This document shows positions 5,690-30,350 of a DNA stretch of 32,000 nt, piece by piece. The stretch comes from Telmatocola sphagniphila. Lineage in GTDB: Bacteria > Planctomycetota > Planctomycetia > Gemmatales > Gemmataceae. Below the pieces are notes generated by a model, which saw only the letters and a program-made list of their open reading frames with translations, was not told where the DNA came from and searched no databases. Made by a program: the position numbers and the translations under genes. Positions within the stretch are counted from its first letter, which is position 1, and each line of letters begins with the position of its first letter. The DNA lies in NCBI RefSeq assembly GCF_018398935.1, contig NZ_CP074694.1, forward strand, positions 3,900,001-3,932,000, read 5' to 3'.

Positions 5690-5754
5690 TGTCCCCTTTC
5701 CTGAAATATCTACCGGTTTAGCCGTTTAAATCGCTATAGGAATTACCTTCTCTT
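5690..5754 (+). repeat. left terminal inverted repeat (IRL)
   Basis: TGTCCCCTTTCCTGAAATATCTACCGGTTTAGCCGTTTAAATCGCTATAGGAATTACCTTCTCTT. It matches the reverse complement of 9376-9440 at roughly two thirds of positions (blocks TGT, CCCCT, AATAT, CCG, TTTAA, AGGAATT, TCTCTT). Confidence 0.65.
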
Positions 5755-5788
5755 TCTTAGGCGGGAATACCGCCAGAAGAGAGGCTAT

Positions 5789-7378
5789 ATGGATGAATTC
5801 AACCAGAATGCATTTGCGGAGAAAAGAGAAGAACAACCGAGAGCTGGTCCGACGGAGGATAGGGACCCGCAGTCCGCGGCTGCCGAAGTGGGGCGGGCGG
5901 AGCCGAGCGCCCCTGAGCGCAGCGAAGGGGAGCGACGCGGAGCCCGCCCCACTTCGGAGTCCTTTCCCGATGCGGGTCTGGATTTATCGGATTCCGTGGA
6001 TTCCGAGGTAGAAGCCAGCCTTTCGAAGCGTAGGGAATTCCACTCGAGGTTATCGGTTCGGGGACCTGTTAAGGGACGGCGTTTGGTGAAAAAACCGACC
6101 GAACCCGTGCCGGCGATGACGGCGGAACAGCGGATTTTGTTGCTGGATACCTGGCAGCGGAGCGGCTTGCCCGCCGGCGATTTTGCTCCTTTGGTAGGCG
6201 TCTCGAAACACACGCTTTACGCATGGAAGAAGCGGTTTGAAATTTCTGGCCCGGCCGGATTGTTGGATCAGCCGCGGGGCAAACCTCCGGGCAGCCGCGT
6301 TCACGAGTTGACCAAGCGTACAATCCTGATGCTCAAAAAATCGAATCCGGAATGGGGGTGTCAGCGGATTAGCGACATGCTATTGCGAGGTCCGGCTTTA
6401 CCGGCGAGTGCTTCGGCGGTGGCCCGGGTGCTGCATGAAGCCGGTTATCAACTGGAGCAGGCTCCGACGCGAGGGCATCCGGACAAGGTGCGGTCCTTCG
6501 AGCGGGCCCGTCCGAATCAGTTATGGCAAACTGATCTTTTCACATTTGTGTTAAAACGTCAGAATCGGCGCGTTCATTTGGTCGGGTTCATGGACGATCA
6601 CAGTCGGTTTTTGGTCGGCTACGGCTTGCATGCGAGCCAGTCATCGGCTTTGGTGCTGGAGGTCTTGCGAGCTTCCATGGCTTCTTATGGAACGCCGGAG
6701 GAGATTCTCACCGACAACGGTACGCAGTATGTGACCTGGCGGGGTAAAAGTGCCTTCTCGAAGGAACTCGAAAAACGGGGCATTCGACAGGTAGTAGCGT
6801 CTCCGCGTCATCCGCAGACTTTGGGTAAGATCGAGCGGTTCTGGGGAACCTTGTGGCGTGAGTGCATCGAGAGTGCAATCTTCATCGACATGGGGGATGC
6901 TCAGCGTCGGATTGGGTTATTCATAGACCATTACAACTTCCAGAGGCCCCATCAGGGGATCGATGGTCTGGTGCCCGCGGACCGTTACTTCGGGGCGGCC
7001 TCGGAAGTGCGTCGGAGTCTTCAAACTCGGGTAGCCGCGAATGCCTTGGAGCTGGCTCGAAACGGGATTCCGAAGCAGCCGTTTTATCTGACCGGCCAGG
7101 TGGGAGGTCAGCCCTTCAGCGTCCATGCGGAAGGGGAACGGATGATCTTGACCCGGCCCGAAGGAGAACGGCGGGAGATAGACTTGGTGCCCCCTCCGCC
7201 GCCGGAATCGACTTCCCGAGACGAGTTGCCCAAGCCGGTCTGTCCGGTCGGCGAGGTGAGCAATCCTCAAAGCTTGGGTTCGGAAGAGCCGTCTTTGCCG
7301 GGGGAATCGCCGTTGGATGAGAGCCTGCGTCTGATCGAGGATATGTGGTCGATCCCGCCTGAGGGAGGTGACTTATGA
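5789..7378 (+). CDS. DDE (rve-type) integrase/transposase, IS481-like single-ORF architecture
   Basis: 529 aa. HTH at LPAGDFAPLVGVSKHTLYAWKKRF. Catalytic-type motifs are WQTDLF (D), ILTDNGTQY (D) and LGKIERFW (E). The first ~100 aa are low-complexity, so the true start may be the internal ATG at 6116 (MTAEQR). Confidence 0.85.
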   Translation: MDEFNQNAFAEKREEQPRAGPTEDRDPQSAAAEVGRAEPSAPERSEGERRGARPTSESFPDAGLDLSDSVDSEVEASLSKRREFHSRLSVRGPVKGRRLVKKPTEPVPAMTAEQRILLLDTWQRSGLPAGDFAPLVGVSKHTLYAWKKRFEISGPAGLLDQPRGKPPGSRVHELTKRTILMLKKSNPEWGCQRISDMLLRGPALPASASAVARVLHEAGYQLEQAPTRGHPDKVRSFERARPNQLWQTDLFTFVLKRQNRRVHLVGFMDDHSRFLVGYGLHASQSSALVLEVLRASMASYGTPEEILTDNGTQYVTWRGKSAFSKELEKRGIRQVVASPRHPQTLGKIERFWGTLWRECIESAIFIDMGDAQRRIGLFIDHYNFQRPHQGIDGLVPADRYFGAASEVRRSLQTRVAANALELARNGIPKQPFYLTGQVGGQPFSVHAEGERMILTRPEGERREIDLVPPPPPESTSRDELPKPVCPVGEVSNPQSLGSEEPSLPGESPLDESLRLIEDMWSIPPEGGDL

Positions 7379-7866
7379 CGACTAATTCCGAGGCGAAAGC
7401 ACCGCGTCGGTCTCGTTCGATAGGAGGTCCAAAACTGGGCGAGTCCTGCGGTCCGCAGGCGAAGCGTCTGGCTTCGGTGATACTGGAGGTACTCGCCGGG
7501 GCTCGCACTCCGACCGATGCGGCCACGGCGGTAGGAATCTCTTTGCCGAATTATTATCAGGTCGAAACGCGTGCCTTGCAGGGATTACTGAAAGCTTGCG
7601 AGCCGCGCCCCCGCGGTCGAGTACGGACCGATGCCAGCGAGTTAGCCTCCTTGCAAAAGGAGAATCAGCGTCTGCAACGGGAACTCGGTCGGCACCAAGC
7701 TCTGGCCCGTGCGTCGCAGCGTGCGGTGGGCCTGGCTCCGCCCCCGACGCGATCGGCTTCGGGAAAGAAGGGGCGAAAACGGCGGACCACCGTGCGTGCT
7801 TTAAGCATTGTCGCTCGGTTGAATCCCGTGCAGCAAGAGGCCCCGAAGGAAGCCGGCGTCCAGTGA
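7375..7866 (+). CDS. transposon accessory HTH/coiled-coil protein (paralog 1)
   Basis: 163 aa, start overlaps the integrase stop (ATGA). TDAATAVGISLPNYYQVETRALQGLLKACEPRPRGR...LQKENQRLQREL aligns with VTEACQILGISEPRYHQLKHQMLAAALEALEPRPAGR...LQKELREREAEL of the next ORF. Confidence 0.7.
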   Translation: MTTNSEAKAPRRSRSIGGPKLGESCGPQAKRLASVILEVLAGARTPTDAATAVGISLPNYYQVETRALQGLLKACEPRPRGRVRTDASELASLQKENQRLQRELGRHQALARASQRAVGLAPPPTRSASGKKGRKRRTTVRALSIVARLNPVQQEAPKEAGVQ

Positions 7867-7900
7867 TAACGATATCGCCCTCGATCGAGGAGGATCGGAG

Positions 7901-8374
7901 ATGCGGGGACGAAAACCGGCGGGACCGGAGTCAGTCGATGAACTGCCCGGTTCCGTCATCGCGAAGGATCGCTTGAAAACGTTGTTGCGGACGATGATCG
8001 GAGAATGCCGGGTGACGGAAGCTTGCCAGATACTGGGCATTAGCGAACCCCGTTACCATCAGTTGAAGCATCAGATGCTGGCGGCGGCCCTGGAAGCCCT
8101 GGAACCGCGTCCCGCCGGTCGTCCGGTTCAAGTGCCTTCGGCGGCGGAAGCGGAGATTCAGAAACTTCAAAAAGAATTACGGGAACGGGAAGCGGAGTTA
8201 AATGTAGCACTAGTCCGCGAAGAACTTGCATCGATATTGCCTCGCGTCGCTAAGTCAGCGACCGAACCAGAGAAAAAAAAACGGAAGCGAGGGCGACCAC
8301 CGGGGGACAAAACGGCCGGCGGCGGCGAGGTTGGGGGCGGCAAAAAGATCGCCGGGAGATCGAAAGGAATCTGA
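7901..8374 (+). CDS. transposon accessory HTH/coiled-coil protein (paralog 2); OrfA-like partner of the downstream integrase
   Basis: 157 aa, GGAGG 8 nt upstream. HTH-like ACQILGISEPRYHQLKHQ, then a coiled-coil and a basic tail. Contains an A9 run (8273-8281) near its 3' end. Confidence 0.75.
   Translation: MRGRKPAGPESVDELPGSVIAKDRLKTLLRTMIGECRVTEACQILGISEPRYHQLKHQMLAAALEALEPRPAGRPVQVPSAAEAEIQKLQKELREREAELNVALVREELASILPRVAKSATEPEKKKRKRGRPPGDKTAGGGEVGGGKKIAGRSKGI
8273..8281 (+). promoter_or_regulatory. candidate -1 programmed frameshift site (A AAA AAA) joining 7901-ORF to 8383-ORF
   Basis: The A9 run is read as AAA AAA AAA in the 7901 frame. The -1 frame (that of 8383..9432) is free of stops from 8254 onward. 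OrfA / -1 / OrfB is the classic IS3-family layout. Confidence 0.55.
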
Positions 8375-8382
8375 GGCGGCGA

Positions 8383-9432
8383 GTGGTCGAGGTAGTGGAT
8401 CGAACGCGGCAACGGGGCTTCTCGATACCTAAGATTGCCCAGCGCTTGCATATGGCAGGTCGCACTCTTCGGCATTGGGTTCAGAGCAATGCGGCGACAT
8501 CTCCTCGACCTTTGGGAAGACCGGTTGTCCGTTCGTCGCGATTGAAGCGAATGGAAGTGCTTGCTCTGTTGGCCGATCTCGGGCCGGCCACCAGCGTGGC
8601 AACTCTCAAAGAGTGCTTCCCGGAAATGACGCGTTCCGAGCTCGAAGACATGCTCAGGCGCTACCGCCGCGTCTGGCGGAAAAGGTATAAACGAACCGGC
8701 TTCCGGCTCAGGTGGACTACGCCGGGAACCGTCTGGGCGATGGATTACACGGAGACGCCACTCATTGATGGAAAGGACCAATACCTGTTGGCAGTCCGAG
8801 ATCTGAGCAGTGGTCAGCAGTTGCTAGCCTGGCCTGTGGCGGCGGCAACTGCCGAGGAAACGCTTGTGGCCCTTCGGTCATTGATCACCCGGGAGGGAGC
8901 CCCGCTGGTACTGAAAATGGATAACGGTTCTCCGTTTATTGCCGAAGTGGTCCAAGAATATTTGCAGCGAGAAGGCGTGTTCGGCTTGTACTCTCCGCCG
9001 AGGAGGCCACAATATAACGGTGCGATCGAAGCGGGCATAGGATCTTTGAAAAGTCGAATCGAACGTAGAGCTGCCTGGGAAGGCCATCCGGAAGTGTGGA
9101 ACGCTGAGGATGTGGAGGCGGCTCGACGGGAAGCCAATGCCTTGGCTCGACCGAGAGGAGGTCTGGGTCCTACTCCCGAGACGCTTTGGAAAAGTCGGGA
9201 GAGAGTCGCAACAGAATCTCGCGATCAGTTCCGAGAGCTTGTTGAAATCCATCGGAACCGAGCTATGGAGGAGGAAGGAAAATCTCCTTCGGGAGTGTTG
9301 CTCGAGCAGGAAGCTCGCCGTATCGATCGAATTGCTTTACGCCGTGCTCTCGTCGATCACGGCGATCTTTTGTTCAAGAGAGGGCCAATTCCTCTAGGAA
9401 TTAAATCGCAAAAAACGGCAAATATTACGTGA
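8383..9432 (+). CDS. DDE (rve-type) integrase, IS3-like OrfB; stop codon 8 nt from the element terminus
   Basis: 349 aa from GTG 8383 (probably also made as a fusion via the frameshift). Motifs are WAMDYT (D), LKMDNGSPF (D) and YNGAIEAGIG (E). Its 3' end lies inside IRR. Confidence 0.85.
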   Translation: MVEVVDRTRQRGFSIPKIAQRLHMAGRTLRHWVQSNAATSPRPLGRPVVRSSRLKRMEVLALLADLGPATSVATLKECFPEMTRSELEDMLRRYRRVWRKRYKRTGFRLRWTTPGTVWAMDYTETPLIDGKDQYLLAVRDLSSGQQLLAWPVAAATAEETLVALRSLITREGAPLVLKMDNGSPFIAEVVQEYLQREGVFGLYSPPRRPQYNGAIEAGIGSLKSRIERRAAWEGHPEVWNAEDVEAARREANALARPRGGLGPTPETLWKSRERVATESRDQFRELVEIHRNRAMEEEGKSPSGVLLEQEARRIDRIALRRALVDHGDLLFKRGPIPLGIKSQKTANIT

Positions 9433-9440
9433 GGGGTACA
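8927..9440 (+). repeat. right-arm repeat, copy 1 (within the complete element)
   Basis: This 514-bp segment recurs at 13309-13822 and 18139-18652. The encoded 161-aa tail differs at 4/161 (copy 2) and 2/161 (copy 3) residues. Confidence 0.95.
9376..9440 (-). repeat. right terminal inverted repeat (IRR)
   Basis: Reverse complement reads TGTACCCCTCACGTAATATTTGCCGTTTTTTGCGATTTAATTCCTAGAGGAATTGGCCCTCTCTT. Pairs with IRL. Confidence 0.65.
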
Positions 9441-10647
9441 CTGGTTAGGCGTAGGCGGGGCTTGGCGTGAAAATCCAACCCTAATAAATGAATGGTTTGA
9501 AGCGAACGATTGCAATCCTTTTAAAGGTGACCTTAATGATGCATTAAGCATCGATGCAAGTAAGTACAGCAACATAGGCACTTTTAATGGTCAATCTTAT
9601 GCACAAGCAGGAGCTGATACGGCAAAAGCAATCAAAGATATGTTGAGTGATACAGCACAATCACTCGTGGTAAATCTGGCTATTCAGTACGGAGCTCCGT
9701 TTTTTTTGAAGACTGTTGAATTCCTTGCGAAAAGCGGTTGGACAGTTGTGAGAGATCAATTCGGGAAAATTATTAGAATCGAAAAGAATGGAATCAAAAT
9801 CACTAGAGCTCAGTTTAAAGATGCGGCAACTGCACAATGTTTCCCAGCAGGAACTTTGGTAGACGCAGAATTTGGTTTGATAAAAATCGAAGAATTAAAC
9901 GTTGGAGATAAAGTTTGGTCATTCGATCACAAAAATCTGGAATGGAAACTAAAGCCAATACTAAATACCTATATCTTGAAATTTGAGAGTGGGTTAGCCT
10001 CCATTTTGGCTGCAGACGAAGTGATTGAAGCTACGGGCGGTCATCCATTCTGGGTGGTTAGAGGCGAATTTTTGGAAAACAGGCCATCTCCAAAAGTCAT
10101 CTCTCCCAGAGAGATAGATGGAAAACTTGATGGTCGCTGGGTATTAGCAGAAGATTTGAAGCCGGGTGACGAACTTTACTCTCGAAATAAATCCAAAGTA
10201 AACGTAGAATCGATTATTATTCGGACGCAACATTTATTTGTATTTAATATACAAGTTGAAGAGTTGGAAAATTATGCAATAACTTCCCTCGGTATTCTCG
10301 TTCATAATCAGAATGCGATTGCTGGATTCGAAGCATACGGTGTAAACCCTCTTCCAGGTACTCGAATCAGGCCACCAGGCATTCCGGATGGTTGGCGAAT
10401 TCGCGGAACGAAATCAAAAGGTGGAATCGAGTACTATAACCCTAATAATCCAAATGAAAGCGTAAGAATAATGCAAGGCAACCCGAACAGTCCATATCCA
10501 AATTCACAAGGGCCATATGTTCGCCAACGGGATGCGGGGGGGAATTATTTACGGCCAGATGGTACTCGTTCGCCATTACCCAATGGCGGAAATAAAGATC
10601 CCGATACTCATATCCCACTTGAAAGATATCCAGGATTTATCCAATGA
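9441..10647 (+). CDS. 5'-truncated polymorphic toxin module 1: pre-toxin region + complete Hint domain + C-terminal toxin domain (family unassigned)
   Basis: The frame is open from 9433, directly after the integrase TGA; the listed ATG is 9640. Hint hallmarks are CFPAGTLV (N-terminal Cys) ... GGHPFWV ... ILVHN (C-terminal HN). A ~110-aa tail follows (GTKSKGGIEYYNPNNPNESVRIMQGNPNSPYPNSQGPYVRQRDAGGNYLRPDG...DTHIPL). The region is AT-rich. Confidence 0.7.
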
Positions 10648-10970
10648 CTCACTATAACAAATCAACGGTATTGTCGGCACTAGATGAATTAGGGAGCCTA
10701 GAAGCTCAAAATCGTCTTTGGCTTTCGGATGGATCTTCAGGAGAAATTTCTTCCTTTGAAGAAGCGATTTGCCAGATATTTGATGCAGGCGTTACACACG
10801 AATTGGAAACACGGCAAGTCCCTGCTCCAAGCTATCTGTTATTCATTAAATTGGACCATTTAATTTCCAAAGTGCCAGAAAATATGCCGCCGAAAGATTT
10901 AATATCATTATCAATAATGACAGAAATAAGAGATTTAGCTGTAAAATTAAAAAACAGCATTACAAAATAA
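10644..10970 (+). CDS. putative cognate immunity protein 1
   Basis: 108 aa. Its ATG overlaps the toxin TGA (ATGA at 10644-10647), implying translational coupling. The product is small and acidic. The call rests on position. Confidence 0.5.
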   Translation: MTHYNKSTVLSALDELGSLEAQNRLWLSDGSSGEISSFEEAICQIFDAGVTHELETRQVPAPSYLLFIKLDHLISKVPENMPPKDLISLSIMTEIRDLAVKLKNSITK

Positions 10971-10974
10971 CGCG

Positions 10975-11030
10975 TGTCCTGGTCAAAAACTGTCCTTTAC
11001 CGCGGTTTGATCGCACTTTGGAATTAGAAT
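10975..11030 (+). repeat. IRL-like left end of a related or derivative element
   Basis: TGTCCTGGTCAAAAACTGTCCTTTACCGCGGTTTGATCGCACTTTGGAATTAGAA shares TGTCC, TACCG(C)GGTTT, ATCGC and GGAATTA blocks, in order, with IRL at 5690. The match needs gaps. Confidence 0.4.
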
Positions 11031-11232
11031 AGCCGAATAGTTATTGAATTGCCAGTCGTCGCTTACGCTGCGAATTTGGTAAGGGAATTGACCTGTTAAG
11101 TCGGTTTTTCCCCGCCGTCTTTGATCGGTGATAAATCGTACCTCGCTCCTACCCCGCCTCGGGTCTGTACAATTTTCCTTTTCCATTTTGCGGTCGCGGT
11201 AGGGACGGGGATTACTCCCCGCCCCCCGCACA

Positions 11233-11265
11233 GATCCGTGCATGCGGAATTACCGCACACGGCTC
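11233..11265 (-). ncRNA. group II intron 1 domain V
   Basis: Minus strand reads GAGCCGUGUGCGG-UAAU-UCCGC-AU-GCACGGAUC. It fits the 34-nt domain V consensus (AGC triad, two-nt bulge, tetraloop) and starts right after the RT stop. Confidence 0.8.
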
Positions 11266-12579
11266 TTACTTCGGGTGTTTGGCATAGAAGCGTTCGTTTG
11301 GAGAAGGATGAAGGATTTTCGGGGAAGCAAGAAGTCGATTGGCGAGAGGGCCGAATCGCTCCCAAATCAAGCGATTTCTCTGGCTCCGACGCCTGAGCGA
11401 CTTATACCAGATACGTACAACTTGAGTGTGAAACGATTGCAGAGCGGGCATGTTCCCTGGGATCGCATGATACTGATAGTACCCTGCCAGCACCTGGCGT
11501 AACCAACTTGCTTGCTCGGGGATTGGTTCGTGCCGCCTTTTCGAAAGCACTTCTTTCACCCGTTGCAAGCGAACCCTCATTCGCTTCTTCGCCGTCTTCC
11601 TTTTCACCAGAAATGTTCTGCTCAATCGTTTTACGCCACAACAATGGGTAAAGCCGAGGAACTCGAACGTTTCTGGTTTCCCTTGGCCACGCTTCTGACG
11701 ATCTTCGCCCGCGAACCGGCCGAATTCGATCAAGCGCGTTTTCTCGGGGTGCAATTCCAGTCCAAATTTCTGGAATCGAGCTTTCAGGTCGAATAGAAAC
11801 CGCTCGGCTTCGCGCCGATACTGGAATCCCAGTGCAAAATCATCGGCATACCGGATAACAATGACGTCTCCGTAGGCATGCTTTTGCCGCCACTGGTGCA
11901 CCCAAAGGTCGAAGACATAATGCAGATACAGATTCGCGAGGAGTGGAGAGACCACTGCCCCTTGAGGTGTACCCATTTTCGTTTCCGACCAGCGACCGTC
12001 TTCGGATACTCCCGCTTTGAGCCATTTCTGGATCAGGCGGAGAATCCTCGGATCGGCGACCCGGTGCTCGACGAATTTCAGCAGCCATTCGTGGTCGATG
12101 GTATCAAAGAAACCCCGAATGTCCGCATCGAGCACCCAATTCACCTTCTTTCCCATGATTCCGACGTGAAGGGCATCCAACGCATCGTGCGCCGAACGCT
12201 TCGGTCGAAAACCGTAGGAAAAACCCACGAAATCCGCCTCCCAAATCTCACTGAGAACCGTCACTATAGCTCGTTGGACTACCTTGTCCTCTAGAGCTGC
12301 AATGCCCAACGCTCGCATTCCTCCGTCCGCTTTTGGTATGTGCGTCCTCCTTACGGGGACAGCTCGATAGCTTCCGGTATGAATGCGGCGATGGAGATCC
12401 TCGATTCGATGAGTTAGACCAATTTCGTACTCCTTCCACGTGACACCATCATTGCCCGGAGCCGCATCCTTCTGCAAGGTTTTGAAGCTCTGAATCATTA
12501 AGGGTATTGTCACATGATGAAGTAAAGCGGTGAATTTTACCTTCTTATCCTTTCGTGCCACTTCTCGCACTCGCTGCAT
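11266..12579 (-). CDS. group II intron reverse transcriptase/maturase (no endonuclease domain evident)
   Basis: RT motifs are KFTALLHHVT, PGNDGVTW, RTHIPKADGGMRALGI and IRYADDFALGF; the C-terminal part is maturase (X)-like. The probable start is ATG 12579 (MQRVREVARK). The 602-aa track ORF (to 13074) reads through intron RNA domains I-III. Confidence 0.85.
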   Translation of the reverse strand: MQRVREVARKDKKVKFTALLHHVTIPLMIQSFKTLQKDAAPGNDGVTWKEYEIGLTHRIEDLHRRIHTGSYRAVPVRRTHIPKADGGMRALGIAALEDKVVQRAIVTVLSEIWEADFVGFSYGFRPKRSAHDALDALHVGIMGKKVNWVLDADIRGFFDTIDHEWLLKFVEHRVADPRILRLIQKWLKAGVSEDGRWSETKMGTPQGAVVSPLLANLYLHYVFDLWVHQWRQKHAYGDVIVIRYADDFALGFQYRREAERFLFDLKARFQKFGLELHPEKTRLIEFGRFAGEDRQKRGQGKPETFEFLGFTHCCGVKRLSRTFLVKRKTAKKRMRVRLQRVKEVLSKRRHEPIPEQASWLRQVLAGYYQYHAIPGNMPALQSFHTQVVRIWYKSLRRRSQRNRLIWERFGPLANRLLASPKILHPSPNERFYAKHPK

Positions 12580-13221
12580 TCCGGATGACGCGTTGGCTCC
12601 GCTCTGTGTCGGAAACGCGACCTTCTGCAGTAAGTTTCCCGATGTTGATAGCCTTCCCTCCATCGTCTCCGCCGGTCTCCGACCTTTGTTCGACGACTTC
12701 TCGGGTACTACGCCATCATCCGACTTCTCAAGGCCGTACATGTCAGGATTATGGGTTATCCCCTTTCCCGACCGATCCGACGAACCATCTTCGACGGATG
12801 AACTTGAGATCTCCCGGTTCCCGCGCAAAGAGTTTTCCCACATGCTCAGGGCCTCCGACTGCGTAGAGTTCCAGGAAGACTCGCCTATGATGCCCTCCTC
12901 GATGTGGCCTTCCGCTTCGGTTAACAGCGTCGGCACCCCAGATGACGTGATTTCGCAGCTCGATACCTGGCCTGTGTGTGCCCCTGTCAACGCTTCACCG
13001 ACAGCCTCGCGACTGGCGGCGTATGACTCGGGGTCGAGATGACTGGCTAAGTCTTCCTCGCGTGACTCTTTCATTCACTACTCCTTGCCGGTTTCGCCGG
13101 CGCACTAACCGTGCTGTGAAATGCGTCCTTGCGTACTTTGCTAGTTGTCCCGAACCGAATTCTGGTCGCATTTGTAGCCGAATTAAAGCTGTAGGGATTT
13201 TGGCATTTTGAAGGGTGTTTT

Positions 13222-13822
13222 GCCGAATACCGGGGAATTTTGGAGCGGTCTGATGACCGAGACCGGGGTGTTGCGATGGGCCGGCGTAGTCCGGCACGAG
13301 GCGCTGCCGTTCGCCGTTTATTGCCGAAGTGGTCCAAGAATATTTGCAGCGAGAAGGCGTGTTCGGCTTGTACTCTCCGCCGAGGAGGCCACAATATAAC
13401 GGTGCGATCGAAGCGGGCATAGGATCTTTGAAAAGTCGAATCGAACGTAGAGCTGCCTGGGAAGGCCATCCGGAAGTGTGGAACGCTGAGGATGTGGAGG
13501 CGGCTCGACGGGAAGCCAATGCCTTGGCTCGACCGAGAGGAGGTCTGGGTCCTACTCCCGAGACGCTTTGGAAAAGTCGGGAGAGAGTCGCGACAGAATC
13601 TCGCGATCAGTTCCGAGAGCTTGTTGAAATCCATCGGAACCGAGCTATGAAGGAGGAAGGAATATCTCCTTCGGGAGTGTTGCTCGAGCAGGAATCTCGC
13701 CGTATGGATCGAATTGCTTTACGCCGTGCTCTCGTCGATCACGGCGATCTTTTGTTCAAGAGAGGGCCAATTCCTCTAGGAATTAAATCGCAAAAAACGG
13801 CAAATATTACGTGAGGGGTACA
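13222..13822 (+). repeat. right-arm repeat, copy 2 (601 bp = 87-bp extra segment + 514-bp arm)
   Basis: 13309-13822 matches 8927-9440. 13222-13308 matches only 18052-18138 and is absent from the complete element. Confidence 0.95.
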
Positions 13823-14249
13823 TTTTTTTGATAGCACAAGAGGTTGGCTCCCTGCTAAATATTTGAAAATCGGAGACCGAATACAAGGCAACGAAAAAGA
13901 GTGGTTATCGATCACAGATTTATTCGAAGACAAAGAAGTAGAACCGGTCTATAACTTAAGAATCGCTGACTATCACACTTATTTTGTTGGAGAAGATTTT
14001 TGGAGCTGGTGCATTTGGGCGCATAATCATTATTTTGAGGTTGGCGCGTTTAATGAATTAAAGCAGATAACGGGCTGGGCGAGGCATCACGTTCCACAAA
14101 CAGTGGTCGCATTGGCTCACGGAGCCACCGATTTTGTGCGAGCAAACGGGCCTGCTATTCGTATACCAGAATGGATGCATAAGGAGATTATTCACTTAGA
14201 GTCTGTTCCAAAAGCCCCTATTTCGGATGAATTTCTCGAGGATTTGTAG
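13823..14249 (+). CDS. 5'-truncated polymorphic toxin module 2: C-terminal part of a Hint domain + toxin domain with HH motif (possible HNH/EndoVII-type)
   Basis: The frame is open from 13815, directly after the arm's TGA. GWLPAKYLKIGDRI...VYNLRIADYHTYFVGE...WAHN aligns with the distal half of the module-1 Hint domain. The ~75-aa tail contains GWARHHVPQ and IPEWMHKEI. Confidence 0.6.
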
Positions 14250-14424
14250 GGTTAGTCCCGGCTTTTGGAACAGACTCTTAACTGAGAGTGGTTTTTTTGC
14301 TAAAGAAGCTGGAAACATTTCACAGCATATTAAAAGTCATTTGCAGCAATTGAGTAACATGGGTGTGCCTAAACAATATTTGCAAGAATTGAAACAACTT
14401 ATAAAGTGGTGGGAATTCGGATAA
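14227..14424 (+). CDS. small ORF overlapping toxin-2 3' end (hypothetical)
   Basis: 65-aa track ORF in the +1 frame relative to toxin 2. The C-terminal part (HIKSHLQQLSNMGVPKQYLQELKQLIKWWEFG) looks protein-like. It is unclear whether it is a separate gene or a frameshifted continuation. Confidence 0.25.
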   Translation: MNFSRICRVSPGFWNRLLTESGFFAKEAGNISQHIKSHLQQLSNMGVPKQYLQELKQLIKWWEFG

Positions 14425-14470
14425 ATTGAACTGAAAAATATTTCTTATTTTATGAGGTATTGGTGACATT

Positions 14471-14944
14471 ATGCACTCGGAGATGATAGAAAATGTCGCC
14501 CTCCATTATTATAACTCCGTTGTTATTGGAGTTATAAGAATGCTCGGGCGAATTCGGGATTTGAATTTGGGCGATTCGCGCAATCCACGTTACAATGACT
14601 TGAAAAAATTGCTTCAAAATTTAAATAAATTTGATCCCGAAGATAAATCTTTGCTGATTTCAGGATTAGTAGCAGTGGCTGAATATTCTTGTTATGCTAC
14701 TGCTGGATTTGTTGAGCATTATAATTCATTTGAATCTGATAACAATAATGATTTATACCCTTCTCTCGTTCTATCGTACAAATATGAAAAAGATGGCGTA
14801 ATTTCATCAGAGGACGTGGCATCATATCAAGACGGCTTCTCAGATGGCTCCTTCGAATCAGCCTTCATGAAAGTTGCATCATCACCTCAAATGAAAGATC
14901 TCGTTCAAAGTAAATTGGTGGAAATATTAGCCAAACTAAATTAG
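14471..14944 (+). CDS. putative immunity protein 2
   Basis: 157-aa AT-rich ORF on the same strand, downstream of toxin 2. The call rests on position; no recognisable motif. Confidence 0.4.
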   Translation: MHSEMIENVALHYYNSVVIGVIRMLGRIRDLNLGDSRNPRYNDLKKLLQNLNKFDPEDKSLLISGLVAVAEYSCYATAGFVEHYNSFESDNNNDLYPSLVLSYKYEKDGVISSEDVASYQDGFSDGSFESAFMKVASSPQMKDLVQSKLVEILAKLN

Positions 14945-14963
14945 CAGAAATTGTTTCTAAGAA

Positions 14964-15024
14964 GCCCTAACAAAATCTCTTTTTATAGCAGTATTCAATG
15001 GACAAATTGTGGTTTTGTTAGGGC
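14964..15024 (+). terminator. long stem-loop GCCCTAACAAAA-N37-TTTTGTTAGGGC after cassette 2
   Basis: Perfect 12-bp inverted repeat (14964-14975 / 15013-15024), 20 nt after the stop of 14471..14944. Confidence 0.35.
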
Positions 15025-15295
15025 CTCTAAGGCTTTGTCTCTTCATCGTCAACGCACACACACTCACACATGTGCCTTGAATTCTATCTAAGAGACTCTA
15101 TCGATGCCTTAAATTGCCGATCGAATAACGCCAAAAACGAGGGTTCTATTAGAGCTTACAGACAATCGATCACATTGCAAACGGATTTGGTCGTTAATCT
15201 CTTGTCAATTCTTCTTGCGAGTTGATATGTGAAATTTAAAGATCGAAAAGAATTCGGAGTATTCCTTCATAACCAGTTCTTGGGATATTAGCGAT

Positions 15296-15712
15296 ATGGA
15301 TGCACTCTACATTCTCAAAAACTCTACTTTTGATAACTTTGAGATTCAGTACTCCCTCCGAAGCCTCCAAACTCATATTCCTTTCATTCGTAAGGTTTGG
15401 GTCTTCGGAGATAAGCCAACATTTCTTTCGTGCAACAAATCGATCATCGAGCATGTGCCTCATGAGTATATGGCAAGTCCTTTGGGTTTTAAATCACCAG
15501 TCACAAATACGTTTCTTATAACATTTCTTGGATCAATAATACCTGGGATGGACGAAGAATTCCTCTGGTTCTGTGATGATTTCTTCCTTCTGAAAGATTT
15601 CCCACCTGAGGAGGCTTGTAAAGATCGCTATTACGAAGATATGTCAAAAGTTACAACTCGAGGTCGACGGGTGACACTGGCACCCCATCTCAATAAACGC
15701 AAGTCGATGTAA
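15296..15712 (+). pseudogene. Stealth-family (capsule phosphotransferase-like) gene fragment, 3'-truncated
   Basis: FEIQYSLRSLQTHIPFIRKVWVFGDKPTFL...IEHVPH resembles Stealth conserved region CR2 (ELRYSLRS...W.R.I.IV). Only ~125 aa of homologous-looking sequence remain. Coding-like sequence ends at ~15668, where the first GGGTGACACTGG motif begins. Confidence 0.45.
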
Positions 15713-16466
15713 AATCTAGACTTGGGTGGCACTGTCTATCTGACAGTGCCATTTAGAACTCACCCATCCTACAACAACAAATCACCCTATTTCAACCCAG
15801 AAGGAATTCATGCCCCGGCGGGTGGCAATGGCAAGCATTCTTAATCAGCGCATGTCGTTATCCAGTAACGGTTTGAGTGGCACTGGCCATCTGCGAGTGC
15901 GTTTCTGCAATAAAGCGTTCTTTCTGCTCGAATTTGTGCCTGAGAGGGTGACAATTCTCTGGCACTTTTTTCTCCCACGCACTGGCAGTTAGCCAGTGCC
16001 ACGCGCCCGTGACTATTCGATACTAGCAGGGTGAGATTCCCTGTCGAAAGGAGGCTTGGCCTTTTGTACCCGAAGGTAACTGCGTCGCCGTGAGGCGGGG
16101 TGGGGAGCAACCCGAGGGGAGCATCTCGTCCGCAATAAAGTGAACTCGTTTCGGCAGCGGATACCGGCGAGCCTGCGTGGCTAAGGCGAAGCTAGCAAAG
16201 CCGGATTGACCGAGAGGTCCGCCAGTGGTTTGGAGAACTAATGGCGACGGCATCATCCCGAGATAAAGCCCCAAGCGAGTCGAGGGAGGTATCCGATGTG
16301 GTTGGAGGCGGAAGGAAAGCGAAGGTATCGAATGTAAGCGGGGATATCCGAGGCGCCGGGGAAGGCAAATGCCTTGTGCGTCGGAAGTCAGAGCGTTCAT
16401 AGTAGCGTAGAAATCGGGTAATACCGAGGGAGCGAAGGGACGTAGGAAGGTGGATTTCGAGGTTAC

Positions 16467-17882: not shown

Positions 17883-18051
17883 GAGGGAAGGGGGAGCCAT
17901 TAACTCCTCCTAGCCCTATACGGAAATTGGACGAGGATTGAGTCCTACAATTCGCAAAGATCAATAAAAAAAACAGCAAGTAACCAGTGCCACCCAAACT
18001 GTTACTCAATAACGACTTGAGTTGATTTAGTTAGGTTACCAGTGCCACCCC

Positions 18052-18652
18052 GCCGAACACCGGGGAATTTTGGAGCGGTCTGATGACCGAGACCGGGGTG
18101 TTGCGATGGGCCGGCGTAGACCGGCACGAGGCGCTGCCGTTCTCCGTTTATTGCCGAAGTGGTCCAAGAATATTTGCAGCGAGAAGGCGTGTTCGGCTTG
18201 TACTCTCCGCCGAGGAGGCCACAATATAACGGTGCGCTCGAAGCGGGCATTGGATCTTTGAGAAGTCGAATCGAACGTAGAGCTGCCTGGGAAGGCCATC
18301 CGGAAGTGTGGAACGCTGAGGATGTGGAGGCGGCTCGACGGGAAGCCAATGCCTTGGCTCGACCGAGAGGAGGTCTGGGTCCTACTCCCGAGACGCTTTG
18401 GAAAAGTCGGGAGAGAGTCGCGACAGAATCTCGCGATCAGTTCCGAGAGCTTGTTGAAATCCATCGGAACCGAGCTATGGAGGAGGAAGGAAAATCTCCT
18501 TCGGGAGTGTTGCTCGAGCAGGAAGCTCGCCGTATCGATCGAATTGCTTTACGCCGTGCTCTCGTCGATCACGGCGATCTTTTGTTCAAGAGAGGGCCAA
18601 TTCCTCTAGGTATTAAATCGCAAAAAACGGCAAATATTACGTGAGGGGTACA
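18052..18652 (+). repeat. right-arm repeat, copy 3 (601 bp; left side truncated at a CCAGTGCCACCC motif)
   Basis: Collinear with 13222-13822 with a few substitutions. Upstream flanks of copies 2 and 3 diverge immediately 5' of GCCGAA. Confidence 0.95.
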
Positions 18653-18881
18653 GATTCAAGGCCGTATGCCTGAAAATTTGGCAGAACAGCTAATTATGGA
18701 AGATGCATTTGAGGACGGCGGCCAAGTGATTATGAAAGGTCCTTTTGGTGATCCTTTGTATCAAGCCCCAGGCTGGGTTAAAAAGCAAATTACGCATACG
18801 CTGCCTGATGGAACAAAGATAGTAGTACATTATATGCACAACACGATTACTGGTGAAATTGCTCAGGTTAAATTCAAGTAG
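18653..18881 (+). CDS. 5'-truncated polymorphic toxin module 3: short C-terminal toxin tip (family unassigned)
   Basis: The frame is open from 18645, directly after the arm's TGA; the listed ATG is 18666. The ~75-aa peptide is ...GPFGDPLYQAPGWVKKQITHTLPDGTKIVVHYMHNTITGEIAQVKFK. It is AT-rich and an immunity-sized ORF follows. Confidence 0.4.
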
Positions 18882-25165: not shown

Positions 25166-26420
25166 ATGGATTCGAGCGAGGAAGTTCCCGAATGTCCCGG
25201 TGGCCGCAAACGTGACGCGATCAACGCGGATTTACTTCATCGCGTCACGCCTTTGGAAGTGAAGCTTAACACTAATTCTCGCAATTTTTCCAATCCTCTT
25301 TCGGCCAATTCACTGGACGCTCCGCCGCCGGTAGTCAAGCAGAAATCGAAGCGTCGACACGGCGGTCAACAGGGTCATGCCTCATTTGAAACAGCTATTG
25401 CCTTCTGATCGAACCACACGCGTCGAACGGATTGTTCCCGATTTGTGTGGCTGTTGCGGCGTAACGACGCAGGCGAGTAGTCCTCAGTCCCTTCGACAGC
25501 ACAGCATCAGTCCTTGGTTTACGGCGACTTTATCGTATTTGAGCGGCTGTTAGTGAGTCAGCAAACGCTGCGTCGGAGAAATCGCCGAGGCGATCTTCGG
25601 CGTGCCGATTGCCTTGGGTACAGTGTCGAACCTGGAGCGGGAAGCAGCGTCGCGTTCGAGCCAGCTCATACCGAGGCGGTTCAGTCGATCTGAACTCATC
25701 CGTGAAATATGTCGACGAAACCAGCTGGAAGTTGGGGGCAAGCTGTGTTGGCTCTGGGGAGCGGCAACGACCAATTTCGAAGCCTTTGTGATTCACGGTC
25801 AAAGTGGCGTGGCGGGTTTGACGACGCTCCTGGGGAAAAACATTCGAGGGATTCTTCACATTGATCGCTGGCATGCGTATCGGCAAGTGCCCGAAGAGCG
25901 CCGACAATTGTGTTGGGCTCATCTAAAACGGGACTTTCGAAAAATTGTCGAAGGCGGCGGGCCCAGTGAGTTCGTGGGACGCCGCGGCCTTCGCTTGGTC
26001 CGGGAGTTGTTCGTGGCCTGGCAGGCCTTCCGAGCCGGCACGATTGACCGCGCGTGTCTTCGCGCTTTGATTGCGCCTTTGGAACGTTGTCTGAATAAAA
26101 CCTTGTTACAAGGAGCATTGGCGGGTGAGGAACGCATCGCGAAATTCTAAGAAAATCTCATCGCCTTGGAACCGGCGGTGTGGACCTTCGCCAAGACCGA
26201 AGGAGTCGAACCGACGAACAATCATATGGAACGATTGGTGCGGCTCGCGGTACTTTGCCGTCGTCGCAGTTTCGGCAGCAATAGCGAGATAGGTTGCCGA
26301 TTCGTCGAACGAATTCTCTCCGTTGTACAAACCTGTCGACTCAGTCGCAAAAAAGTGGTCGACTATCTTACCGCTAATACAGCCAAGCGAACCCAACCCA
26401 GATTACACATCGCCTGTTGA
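25166..26420 (+). pseudogene. IS66-family transposase, decayed (several frameshifts and in-frame stops)
   Basis: The pieces lie in three frames: RRHGGQQGH / LLPSDR..CGCCG; YVDETSWKLGGKLCWLWGAAT..DRWHAYRQV..CWAHLKRDF; and EPTNNHMERLVRLAVLCRRRSFGSNSEIG. A TAG TGA pair at ~25549-25554 interrupts the frame. Confidence 0.8.
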
Positions 26421-28926: not shown

Positions 28927-30350
28927 GGCTCTTCCGTTTCTAGGTGTAGCATCCAGAGAAATGCTTCTGTATCTGGTTGACGAAGCCGCGAATCTCCGCA
29001 ATGGTCGGCCCTAATTTTTTCGCTGCCCAATTCACGTCCAGGAGTATTCTCGTCCAGAGCGTAGTTAGACTCTGAATTCCATAACTTCGGCGTAGCACTA
29101 CCCGAATCTTGGTATTCAGACCCTCCACCGGGCCGCTGCTTTTGCGTTCCTCGAAGTAGGCTAAGATCCCCTCCCAGTTATTCTTGAGCATCGTGATGAA
29201 CGGCTCCCAATCCATCTCGGTCTCGCGGGCCTGGACGATCCAATCTTCCAACAGTCGCGAGGCTTCGGCTCGGTTCGGGGCACTATCGAAGATTTTGGTC
29301 GCCTCCCAACGCAGATGGTAGATCGTTCCCAACGAAGGCACCTTCTCGAACAAATCCTCGAGGGCCTGGACCTGCTCCGGTTTCAAATCCTCGGGACGAC
29401 GCCGGAAGTCGTGCATCTGAGAACGCAGCTTCTTGCGGGCTTCCCCGCTCAAACTTCGCTTGTAGGCTCGATAGTTTTTTTTCGCAGATCGTCCGCCACC
29501 TCACCCAATTTCTTGGCGACGTGAAAGCGATCTATTACCGACTGGCTGTTGGGTAAATGCACGCCGCAAGCCTTCAAATACGCCGCGCTCATGTCCGTAT
29601 GATGCCAACGCACCGCCGACCGTTGCTGGGCCGACAAATGCTCCAAACACGCTCGCCCCGCTGCTTCGTCGCGACCCTTGGACAGAGCCAGAATCTCCGG
29701 ACGCTCCCCATTCGTCAGGTCTGTGAGAATGGTCGCATATCCCTTATGCCCCTTACGCAGGCTGATCTCATCCAGACCCAAACGCTCGATCTTCCGCTGG
29801 GGATCGATCTGCTTCGCCTTGGCGTCCTCTATCCGGTTCTTGACGATTCGTTCCACCGTCTCCGCGGCGATCCCCAAACGCACCGCCACGTCTTCGGCTG
29901 TGCTCCCGATCAGACTGACCAGCACCTGCTCCTCGAAGCGAAACGTATATTTCACATCCCGACGCTTGAACGGCGGCAACAGCGATTGACGGTGACCGCA
30001 CGACGGGCAGCGGTGATACACCTCCTGGTACACGAAAAAGCTCGGCTTACCCCACAAATCCAGATCGCGGATGCTCAGAAACTTGTTCTTCTCCACCAAT
30101 TGAAGCCGAGACTCTCGCTGGCATGTCTCGCAACAAAGATTGTCGGGCAACTCCCAACTCACGTGAAAGGCGTGGCCCCCGTCGATGCGTTCGTATTCGC
30201 CAACGCTCACTCCGGCAGGGACGTCCATGTCTATGGCAATGGTAGTCGTCGTCATCGGCTCTTCCGTGAACCAGGAAAAGGGTACTCTCAATTGCAATCT
30301 ATCCCAAAATGACCGATTCGCCGAGAGTTGCGCCTAAAAACGGAAGAGCC
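28927..30350 (-). mobile_element. ISL3-family insertion sequence (1424 bp) with 8-bp target-site duplication CGGAATTT
   Basis: IRs are GGCTCTTCCGTTTCTAGGTGTAGC (28927-) and the reverse complement of 30350, GGCTCTTCCGTTTTTAGGCGCAAC. CGGAATTT occurs at 28919-28926 and 30351-30358. Confidence 0.9.
28940..30297 (-). pseudogene. ISL3-family transposase, split at an A8 run
   Basis: The 282-aa N-part (CCETC...CPSCG zinc finger, HTH, DEISLRKGHKGYATILTD) and the 170-aa C-part overlap at 29449-29452. Reading ..DDLRKK|NYRAYKRSLSGEARKKL across the homopolymer (29465-29472) restores one ~450-aa ORF. Confidence 0.85.

Follow-up and report, generated by a model that had tools for sequence, protein, structure and literature searches.

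We analysed a 32,000-nt window of the genome of the planctomycete Telmatocola sphagniphila (contig NZ_CP074694.1, positions 3,900,001 to 3,932,000; coordinates below are those of this window), which exact look-ups placed at KIH39_15525-15600. It harbors a full-length insertion sequence (IS)-like element at 5690..9440 on the plus strand, together with two further copies of the right arm of this element. As judged from sequence comparison, these two copies, termed copies 2 and 3, appear to be coding-dead remnants that carry one and the same scar, and a single origin of the remnants, the death of their coding capacity and the multiplication of what remained are well supported. We would give about an even chance to a composite explanation of their spread, in which segmental duplication acted together with a transposase supplied in trans and with rearrangement of the left side. 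On the other hand, the two-ended mini-element of about 0.9 kb that a first-pass annotation had proposed, with a left inverted repeat (IRL)-like sequence at 10975 as its left end, is not demonstrated.

Truncated right arms with a common junction

Self-BLAST of the window revealed a 514-nt right arm in three copies on the plus strand, namely, copy 1 (8927..9440), copy 2 (13309..13822) and copy 3 (18139..18652), with pairwise identities of 98.8-99.0%. Copy 1 is located inside the full element, and comprises the codons of open reading frame (ORF) 4 from SPF to the stop as well as the right terminal inverted repeat (TIR). The similarity between copies 2 and 3 (QVL30269 and QVL30273, respectively, by exact look-ups) extends farther upstream, 13222-13822 matching 18052-18652 over 601 nt at 98.2% identity, as both are preceded by an 87-nt segment on the plus strand (13222..13308 and 18052..18138). 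The two segments differ at two positions only (13228 and 13290); the first-pass annotation had noticed the segment and counted three substitutions in it, the third of which (13313) belongs to the arm.

According to translation and alignment, homology to the full copy begins within the Gly codon of KMDNG|SPF (8926/8927), where the first-pass annotation had also put it. When ORF4 is aligned with ORF1, the other transposase gene of the element, the D of KMDNG in ORF4 matches LTDNG, and the E at NGAIEAG matches GKIERF, so that the breakpoint falls directly after the second catalytic Asp of ORF4. Both catalytic Asp residues are gone from copies 2 and 3, the Glu alone being kept, and the 87 nt carries stop codons in the transposase frame upstream of the breakpoint. 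Since they lack both Asp residues, copies 2 and 3 cannot encode an active enzyme, as had been concluded before; in possessing no functional transposase of their own they resemble miniature inverted-repeat transposable elements (MITEs). What remains in each is the last 167 codons of ORF4 and an intact right TIR, which scores 57-58 bits in either copy against a profile of the family ends. This profile was built from 15 ends and used to scan the window with nhmmer; one model was built without the window's own ends.

Copy 2 carries five private substitutions in the arm, four of them nonsynonymous, and copy 3 carries four; overall, the private changes are mostly nonsynonymous, and at a single arm site copies 2 and 3 agree with each other and differ from the full copy. 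Since the two arms differ from the full copy at this one shared site only, they derive from this very element, and the remnant lineage is recent, descended from the resident element, and decaying. Thus, the earlier view of a distinct derivative holds in so far as the lineage is set by one junction, while "relative" has to give way to descendant. In addition, the short-read Logan contig L001 equals 5690-8956 exactly, its ends corresponding to the left terminus and the 8926/8927 breakpoint, as is expected if a k=31 assembly graph branches at both places.

Used as a query, the arm protein returned a Telmatocola sphagniphila protein of 186 amino acids (aa) with 98% identity. The 90% cluster of this protein contains 12 fragment loci (85-186 aa) and three full-length ORF4 loci in the genome; accordingly, the earlier reservation that copies 2 and 3 might have no companions no longer applies. 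Two of the fragments, KIH39_15980 and KIH39_10440, start with MTETGVLRWAGVVRHEALP, the peptide encoded in the 87 nt, and are joined to the ORF4 frame via different indels. The 87-nt junction is thus found at at least four loci (copies 2 and 3 and these two). As two more fragments begin inside the 87 nt, the junction arose once and was then multiplied. Seven 151-aa annotations at other loci share one GTG start, which is consistent with the same structure. The other fragment loci show frameshifts, truncations and a lost stop codon, by which one of them (P0155) reads through the terminus, and the fragments are mostly paired, with a few genes between the members of a pair. When the fragment ORFs were looked up as exact proteins, zero records were returned. 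A near-identical arm ORF is present in another sample, on a 542-nt contig of the ENA metagenomes (P0162), the length of which is about that of the arm plus the k-mer overhang; this length hints that the truncated repeat occurs in a related population as well.

By blastn-short and six-frame tblastn, the 87 nt itself has no match in 5690-9440, in agreement with the first-pass annotation, and none in related elements or the rest of the window. Its G+C content is 0.67, compared with 0.45-0.49 in the flanks. In copy 2 it contains GGAG, followed after 8 nt by an ATG at 13253 that opens the peptide MTETGVLRWAGVVRHEALP; in the window copies this ATG is out of the ORF4 frame. Several identities for the segment were considered and rejected. 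As a structured RNA it gave folding z-scores of +0.65 to -1.08 and zero Rfam matches even at E 1. As a diverged piece of the element, neither the 87 nt nor the 344 nt of non-coding DNA upstream of it in copy 2 (next section) was matched by blastn or tblastn to the full element or to the related elements on contigs L002 and L003, and the ORF4 family profile was negative in all six frames of both; the peptides of five reading frames of the 87 nt gave nothing but noise against the family loci. Pfam returned no match in any frame of the 87 nt, and a 22-mer of it had one match among metagenome contigs, by chance. A DNA search for further copies was blank in viral contigs and recovered distant relatives only from the genome collection.

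The left side of copies 2 and 3

Upstream of copy 2, non-coding DNA on the plus strand runs from the end of an immunity-like gene to a group II intron (10971..11198, containing the proposed IRL at 10975-11030) and, after the intron, for another 116 nt to the 87-nt segment (13106..13221). The intron occupies 11199..13105 on the minus strand, its putative bounds being GUGCG at 13105 and ...CUAC at 11199, and includes a reverse transcriptase ORF. It matches Rfam RF02005 with 179 bits and RF00029 with 42 bits, its protein matches RVT_1 at E 9e-40, and it is annotated as a group II intron reverse transcriptase/maturase; having both ribozyme domains and a reverse transcriptase, it is a bona fide group II intron. 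Its removal leaves 228 + 116 = 344 nt, with zero Pfam or Rfam matches, in keeping with the roughly 340 bp of non-coding DNA reported earlier.

The IRL-like sequence at 10975, and with it the proposed 0.9-kb unit with both ends, did not withstand alignment, as local scores against the IRL and the right inverted repeat (IRR) were at background. A strict local alignment scored 16, compared with a shuffle mean of 15.9 (standard deviation 2.3), and a lenient one scored 40.5, where the background of real sequence has a mean of 27.7 and a maximum of 43. The family end profile points to two other places in the 344 nt. The first, relic A (11046..11094, plus strand), is in left-end orientation and is the best match in the window on either strand after the four true ends, with E 0.0066 in the model without the window's own ends, E 0.09 with the other all-ends models and 0.27 with a left-ends-only model. 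When the 344 nt was dinucleotide-shuffled 3000 times, 2 shuffles reached its score, and the top family-end score at other loci (65 kb) was at most 5.2 bits. The second, candidate B (13146..13206, plus strand), is left-end-like, starts with TGTCCC and lies 76 nt 5' of the 87 nt. Its score of 3.3-4.7 bits (E ~1 window-wide) is not significant alone; when it is aligned pairwise to the IRL, as high a score is reached by 9-16 of 1314 background windows (p ~0.01). Taken together, the region 5' of copy 2 probably holds relics of family ends. Upstream of copy 3 we found neither relic A nor candidate B, nor any other left end.

These relics bear on the possibility that copies 2 and 3 descend from a two-ended, MITE-like deletion derivative with a left repeat of its own, which was moved by the transposases of the full element and measured 0.9 kb (left end near 10975-11046) or 677 bp (left end at 13146), copy 3 having lost its left end later. 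Such a derivative would account for the multicopy state, with 12 fragments against three full elements, and for exact right boundaries in different flanks; relic A has the correct orientation, and the distance from candidate B to the ATG is 107 nt, compared with the 99-102 nt that lie between the terminus and the start of ORF1 in real elements. Furthermore, the family does yield two-ended deletion derivatives: the 1.9-kb both-ended member at 8623-10512 of L002, a contig of a metagenome-assembled genome of Gemmataceae, passes directly from the start of ORF1 to ORF3 and ORF4, and is thus an internal-deletion derivative. However, aside from the background-level score at 10975, relic A lacks the terminal 13 nt, including TGTCCCC, and covers family end positions 14-59 only; candidate B scores no higher with a left-end model extended from the terminus to the ORF1 start; and copy 3 has neither sequence. 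Moreover, what lies to the left of either candidate unit is not the 5' half of the interrupted HINT gene that follows the arm, the twin of copy 2 elsewhere in the genome arose by segmental duplication (see below), and copies 2 and 3 have just 601 nt in common, which also argues against simple mobilisation of a two-ended unit in trans. A direct repeat flanking the candidate units was not found, which is uninformative as complete elements lack target-site duplications too. We therefore consider a two-ended ancestor rather unlikely, with perhaps one chance in its favor for every three against.

The minus strand of this region holds a frame that is open for about 209 codons, from 13519 to ~10985 once the intron is removed, in the same orientation as the intron. 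As a gene running across the intron-less join it is unproven, Pfam being blank and homology absent. GCCGAAT was also considered as a repeated binding motif and rejected; it occurs eight times in the window against 7.7 expected, and the post hoc p of its local cluster is ~0.05.

On the left side of copy 3, CCAGTGCCACCC directly adjoins 18052, as the first-pass annotation had seen. Rather than being a motif that merely cuts the copy, it belongs to a 67-nt repeat unit (17984..18050, plus strand), further units of which are located at 15669-15736 and 15820-15886 on the minus strand. The unit consists of two 13-nt direct repeats (GGGTGGCACTGGC-like) with a spacing of 55 nt, and its three occurrences surround a second group II intron, with the units on its two sides inverted relative to each other; directly 5' of the 5' end of this intron stands a perfect hairpin, GGCACTGGC-agtta-GCCAGTGCC (15977-16002). 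Elsewhere in the window, at 25166-26150 and ~28950-30300, there are DUF6444 and DDE_Tnp_IS66 fragments, which are remnants of IS66 type, and a GC-rich block starting at 28952, where Logan contig L004 stops, suggesting another repeated element there.

Toxin cassettes at the right junctions and the spread of the remnant

Arm homology ends exactly at the terminal ACA, and four different right flanks follow it. In the window, each right terminus adjoins the remainder of a toxin gene. Toxin ORF 1 (9442..10647, plus strand), a 5'-truncated RHS/PT-HINT ORF, is open from the right-terminus junction in the ORF4 frame and is followed by an immunity-like ORF (10644-10970); toxin ORF 2 (13824..14249, plus strand), likewise 5'-truncated, begins mid-HINT at the copy-2 junction in the ORF4 frame; and a short C-terminal ORF 3 of 75 codons (18654..18881, plus strand) is open from the copy-3 junction, again in the ORF4 frame. 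PT-HINT was matched at E 5e-13 and 8e-9 in the first two, while the third cassette has no domain match. Toxin 1 consists of a pre-HINT and a HINT part, the former being 69-76% identical to RHS repeat-associated proteins. A small ORF follows each of the three cassettes, and the right flanks fit orphan RHS/PT-HINT cassettes, in which a PT-HINT domain or RHS-core C-terminus precedes a variable C-terminal domain and then a small ORF. A search with the toxin ORFs for paralogues returned none from Telmatocola sphagniphila. At the three junctions (9441, 13823 and 18653) the toxin ORFs are open from the first flank base, with only TGA GGG GTA CA in between, and three in-frame junctions would occur by chance with a probability of about 1/27.

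One step of the multiplication can be traced. Copy 2, toxin 2, the next ORF and a Stealth-CR2 fragment (KIH39_15560-15575) recur in reversed order about 75 genes away, at KIH39_15930-15945, the proteins of which are identical or near-identical to those of window 13329-15712. Reversed gene order with near-identical proteins marks this as an inverted segmental duplication, 2.4 kb or more in length, that carries copy 2 together with its toxin-immunity cassette. It is the sole remnant duplication whose extent is traceable, which again speaks against simple mobilisation of a two-ended unit in trans.

This duplication also speaks for the possibility that the fragments are inert and spread passively, by segmental duplication only, their right flanks being swapped by homologous recombination within the 514-bp arm in RHS arrays and the transposase playing no part after the truncation. 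The pairing of the fragments by locus tag and the location of all right ends of the window in one toxin-cassette array would agree with it, and an RRMDR polymorphism common to some fragments and a full copy suggests exchange between copies. However, a crossover in the arm swaps flanks and cannot raise the number of 87-nt junctions, and gene conversion, for lack of homologous sequence on the left of the junction, cannot copy it. Since exact ACA junctions with at least three flanks are found for truncated copies, strand transfer by a transposase acting on the right end is their simplest maker. A purely passive spread is thus improbable in our judgment, a little more so than the two-ended ancestor.

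We are left with the composite explanation as the best available one. In one ancestral event, the left 3.2 kb of an element would have been lost, and an unrelated GC-rich stretch of 87 bp joined to ORF4 at the Gly codon of its DNG motif. The scarred fragment would then have been multiplied to about 12 fragments, as against three full elements; in one step by the inverted segmental duplication of copy 2 and its cassette, and in the others by events that set the right terminus precisely beside different RHS/PT-HINT genes lacking their 5' parts. These latter steps may have been carried out by the transposase of the full copy, acting in trans on the intact right end, with rearrangement of the left side after or alongside. 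As there is no shared left end and the flanks are not contiguous, such an extra rearrangement, or else a one-ended or surrogate-end reaction, would be needed. Mobilisation of the remnants in trans is best called plausible.

Several observations weigh against this explanation. First, copies 2 and 3 have no common left terminal repeat, their shared left boundary being 13222/18052 only, and the relics upstream of copy 2 are weak, being ~60-65% like the IRL, compared with 99% identity in the arm. Second, no copy, the full copy included, has in its left flank a sequence encoding the missing 5' part of the toxin, so that the two flanks are not contiguous target DNA. Third, the pairing of the fragments fits array-type duplication as well as local hopping. 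Finally, the census beyond the window was read from annotation and proteins, and the 151-aa fragments are presumed to carry the 87 nt.

It is very improbable that the fragment is a functional module serving as a homology or expression block in frame before orphan toxin cassettes, although the three termini adjoin open toxin ORFs in the ORF4 frame, P0155 has lost its stop and the 87 nt supplies GGAG and an ATG, because the fragments accumulate frameshifts, truncations and mostly nonsynonymous changes, all three window copies retain a stop codon between the ORF4 and toxin frames, the ATG is out of the ORF4 frame in the window copies, and in other genomes the element's relatives do not lie beside toxin genes.

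The parent element and its relation to known systems

The full-length element (3,751 bp, TGT...ACA termini) is bounded by imperfect TIRs of ~65 nt, which align between 5690-5759 and 9371-9440, and both ends match the hidden Markov model of the family ends at E 1e-13 to 1e-17. It encodes four ORFs on the plus strand, namely, ORF1 (5789-7378), an IS481-like rve protein of 529 aa by Pfam and NCBIfam; ORF2 (7375-7866; 163 aa), with zero family matches; ORF3 (7901-8374; 157 aa), a helix-turn-helix (HTH) protein; and ORF4 (8383-9432), a second rve protein, whose frame is open from 8252. ORF1 scores 209.4 bits on the IS481 model (cut-off 224), and ORF4 scores 76 bits on the IS3 model (cut-off 160). 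A run of nine A residues (8273-8281) is located near the end of ORF3, within the open frame of ORF4, and fused ORF3-ORF4 forms occur as a Logan variant (P0282) and as homologues of 538-556 aa; this suggests that an IS3-like -1 frameshift would fuse the HTH part of ORF3 to ORF4.

The same four-gene order with like ends is found in Planctomycetota contigs L003, L007, L008 and L013, at ~50% protein identity, and with more than 1000 ORF4 homologues the element is widespread in Planctomycetota metagenomes. A target-site duplication was found in 0 of the 6 family elements with both ends readable. In this genome, the window copy, a complete partner 4 kb away, is the sole intact one of the three, with all four ORFs intact; in the other two (KIH39_19580-19600 and KIH39_11200-11220) ORF2 is split into 89 aa and 71 aa, and in one of them ORF3 is truncated. 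Hence, as MITE-like derivatives do, the remnants have an autonomous partner in the same genome. Literature searches on this element type and on this genome returned no relevant work.

MITE-like internal-deletion derivatives have been described for many IS families. The fragments are like them in that they come from a resident autonomous element, have no working transposase, retain an intact terminal repeat and outnumber the parent (12 against three copies); they differ in that only the right terminal repeat is demonstrable, the left 87 nt is not parent sequence, there is no common left boundary beyond it and target-site duplications are not observed. Another comparison is with solo IS ends or graveyard remnants, since here too a truncated, decaying transposase gene lies among group II introns, IS fragments and repeat units; however, in our case one scar recurs at four or more loci, which indicates that the remnant was copied and not formed repeatedly. 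The fragments resemble known IS-derived non-autonomous elements or solo ends, short of having two demonstrable ends.

Transposition units of the ISEcp1/IS1247 type are mobilised by one-ended or surrogate-end reactions and carry DNA beyond the end of an active IS. By analogy, the remnants may be compared with them, as they have one intact end, a variable other side and an exact boundary only at the intact end; in contrast, the moving piece here would be a dead fragment served in trans, and no TGT... surrogate end is apparent at 13222 or 18052. The parent has in common with the IS3 and IS481 families the rve domains with a D, D, E triad, the TGT...ACA termini, and an HTH ORF that has, past the A9 run, an rve ORF downstream of it in the -1 frame. 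It differs from both in that a single TIR-bounded unit of 3.75 kb contains two distinct rve genes along with a fourth ORF, and the short target-site duplication characteristic of these families is not seen in the parent family. The right flanks, in turn, are similar to RHS/CdiA orphan arrays in their 5'-truncated PT-HINT/RHS C-terminal modules, small immunity-like ORFs and mobile debris in between, but here the cassettes start exactly at a transposon terminus, not within a retained toxin core.

The parent is probably the more interesting object, having four genes, two rve transposases and no target duplications, and its architecture, together with the systematic in-frame adjoining of toxin cassettes, is worth follow-up. 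There is an outside chance, clearly smaller than that of passive spread, that the scarred right-end fragment, its terminus served in trans, repeatedly captures 5'-truncated RHS/PT-HINT toxin-immunity modules or is joined to them in frame, and thereby builds and reshuffles orphan arrays at several genomic loci, with the parent as an undescribed IS that has two DDE transposases and makes no target-site duplication. The copy numbers, 12 against three, already warn annotators that the "hypothetical proteins" of 128-186 aa encoded by such fragments are transposase pseudogenes. If the remnants are passive debris, they would still be markers for tracing genome rearrangements. If, on the other hand, they are mobilised in trans, then a DDE element can amplify a derivative with one recognisable end, and in a planctomycete the turnover of RHS toxin cassettes would be linked to transposon activity.

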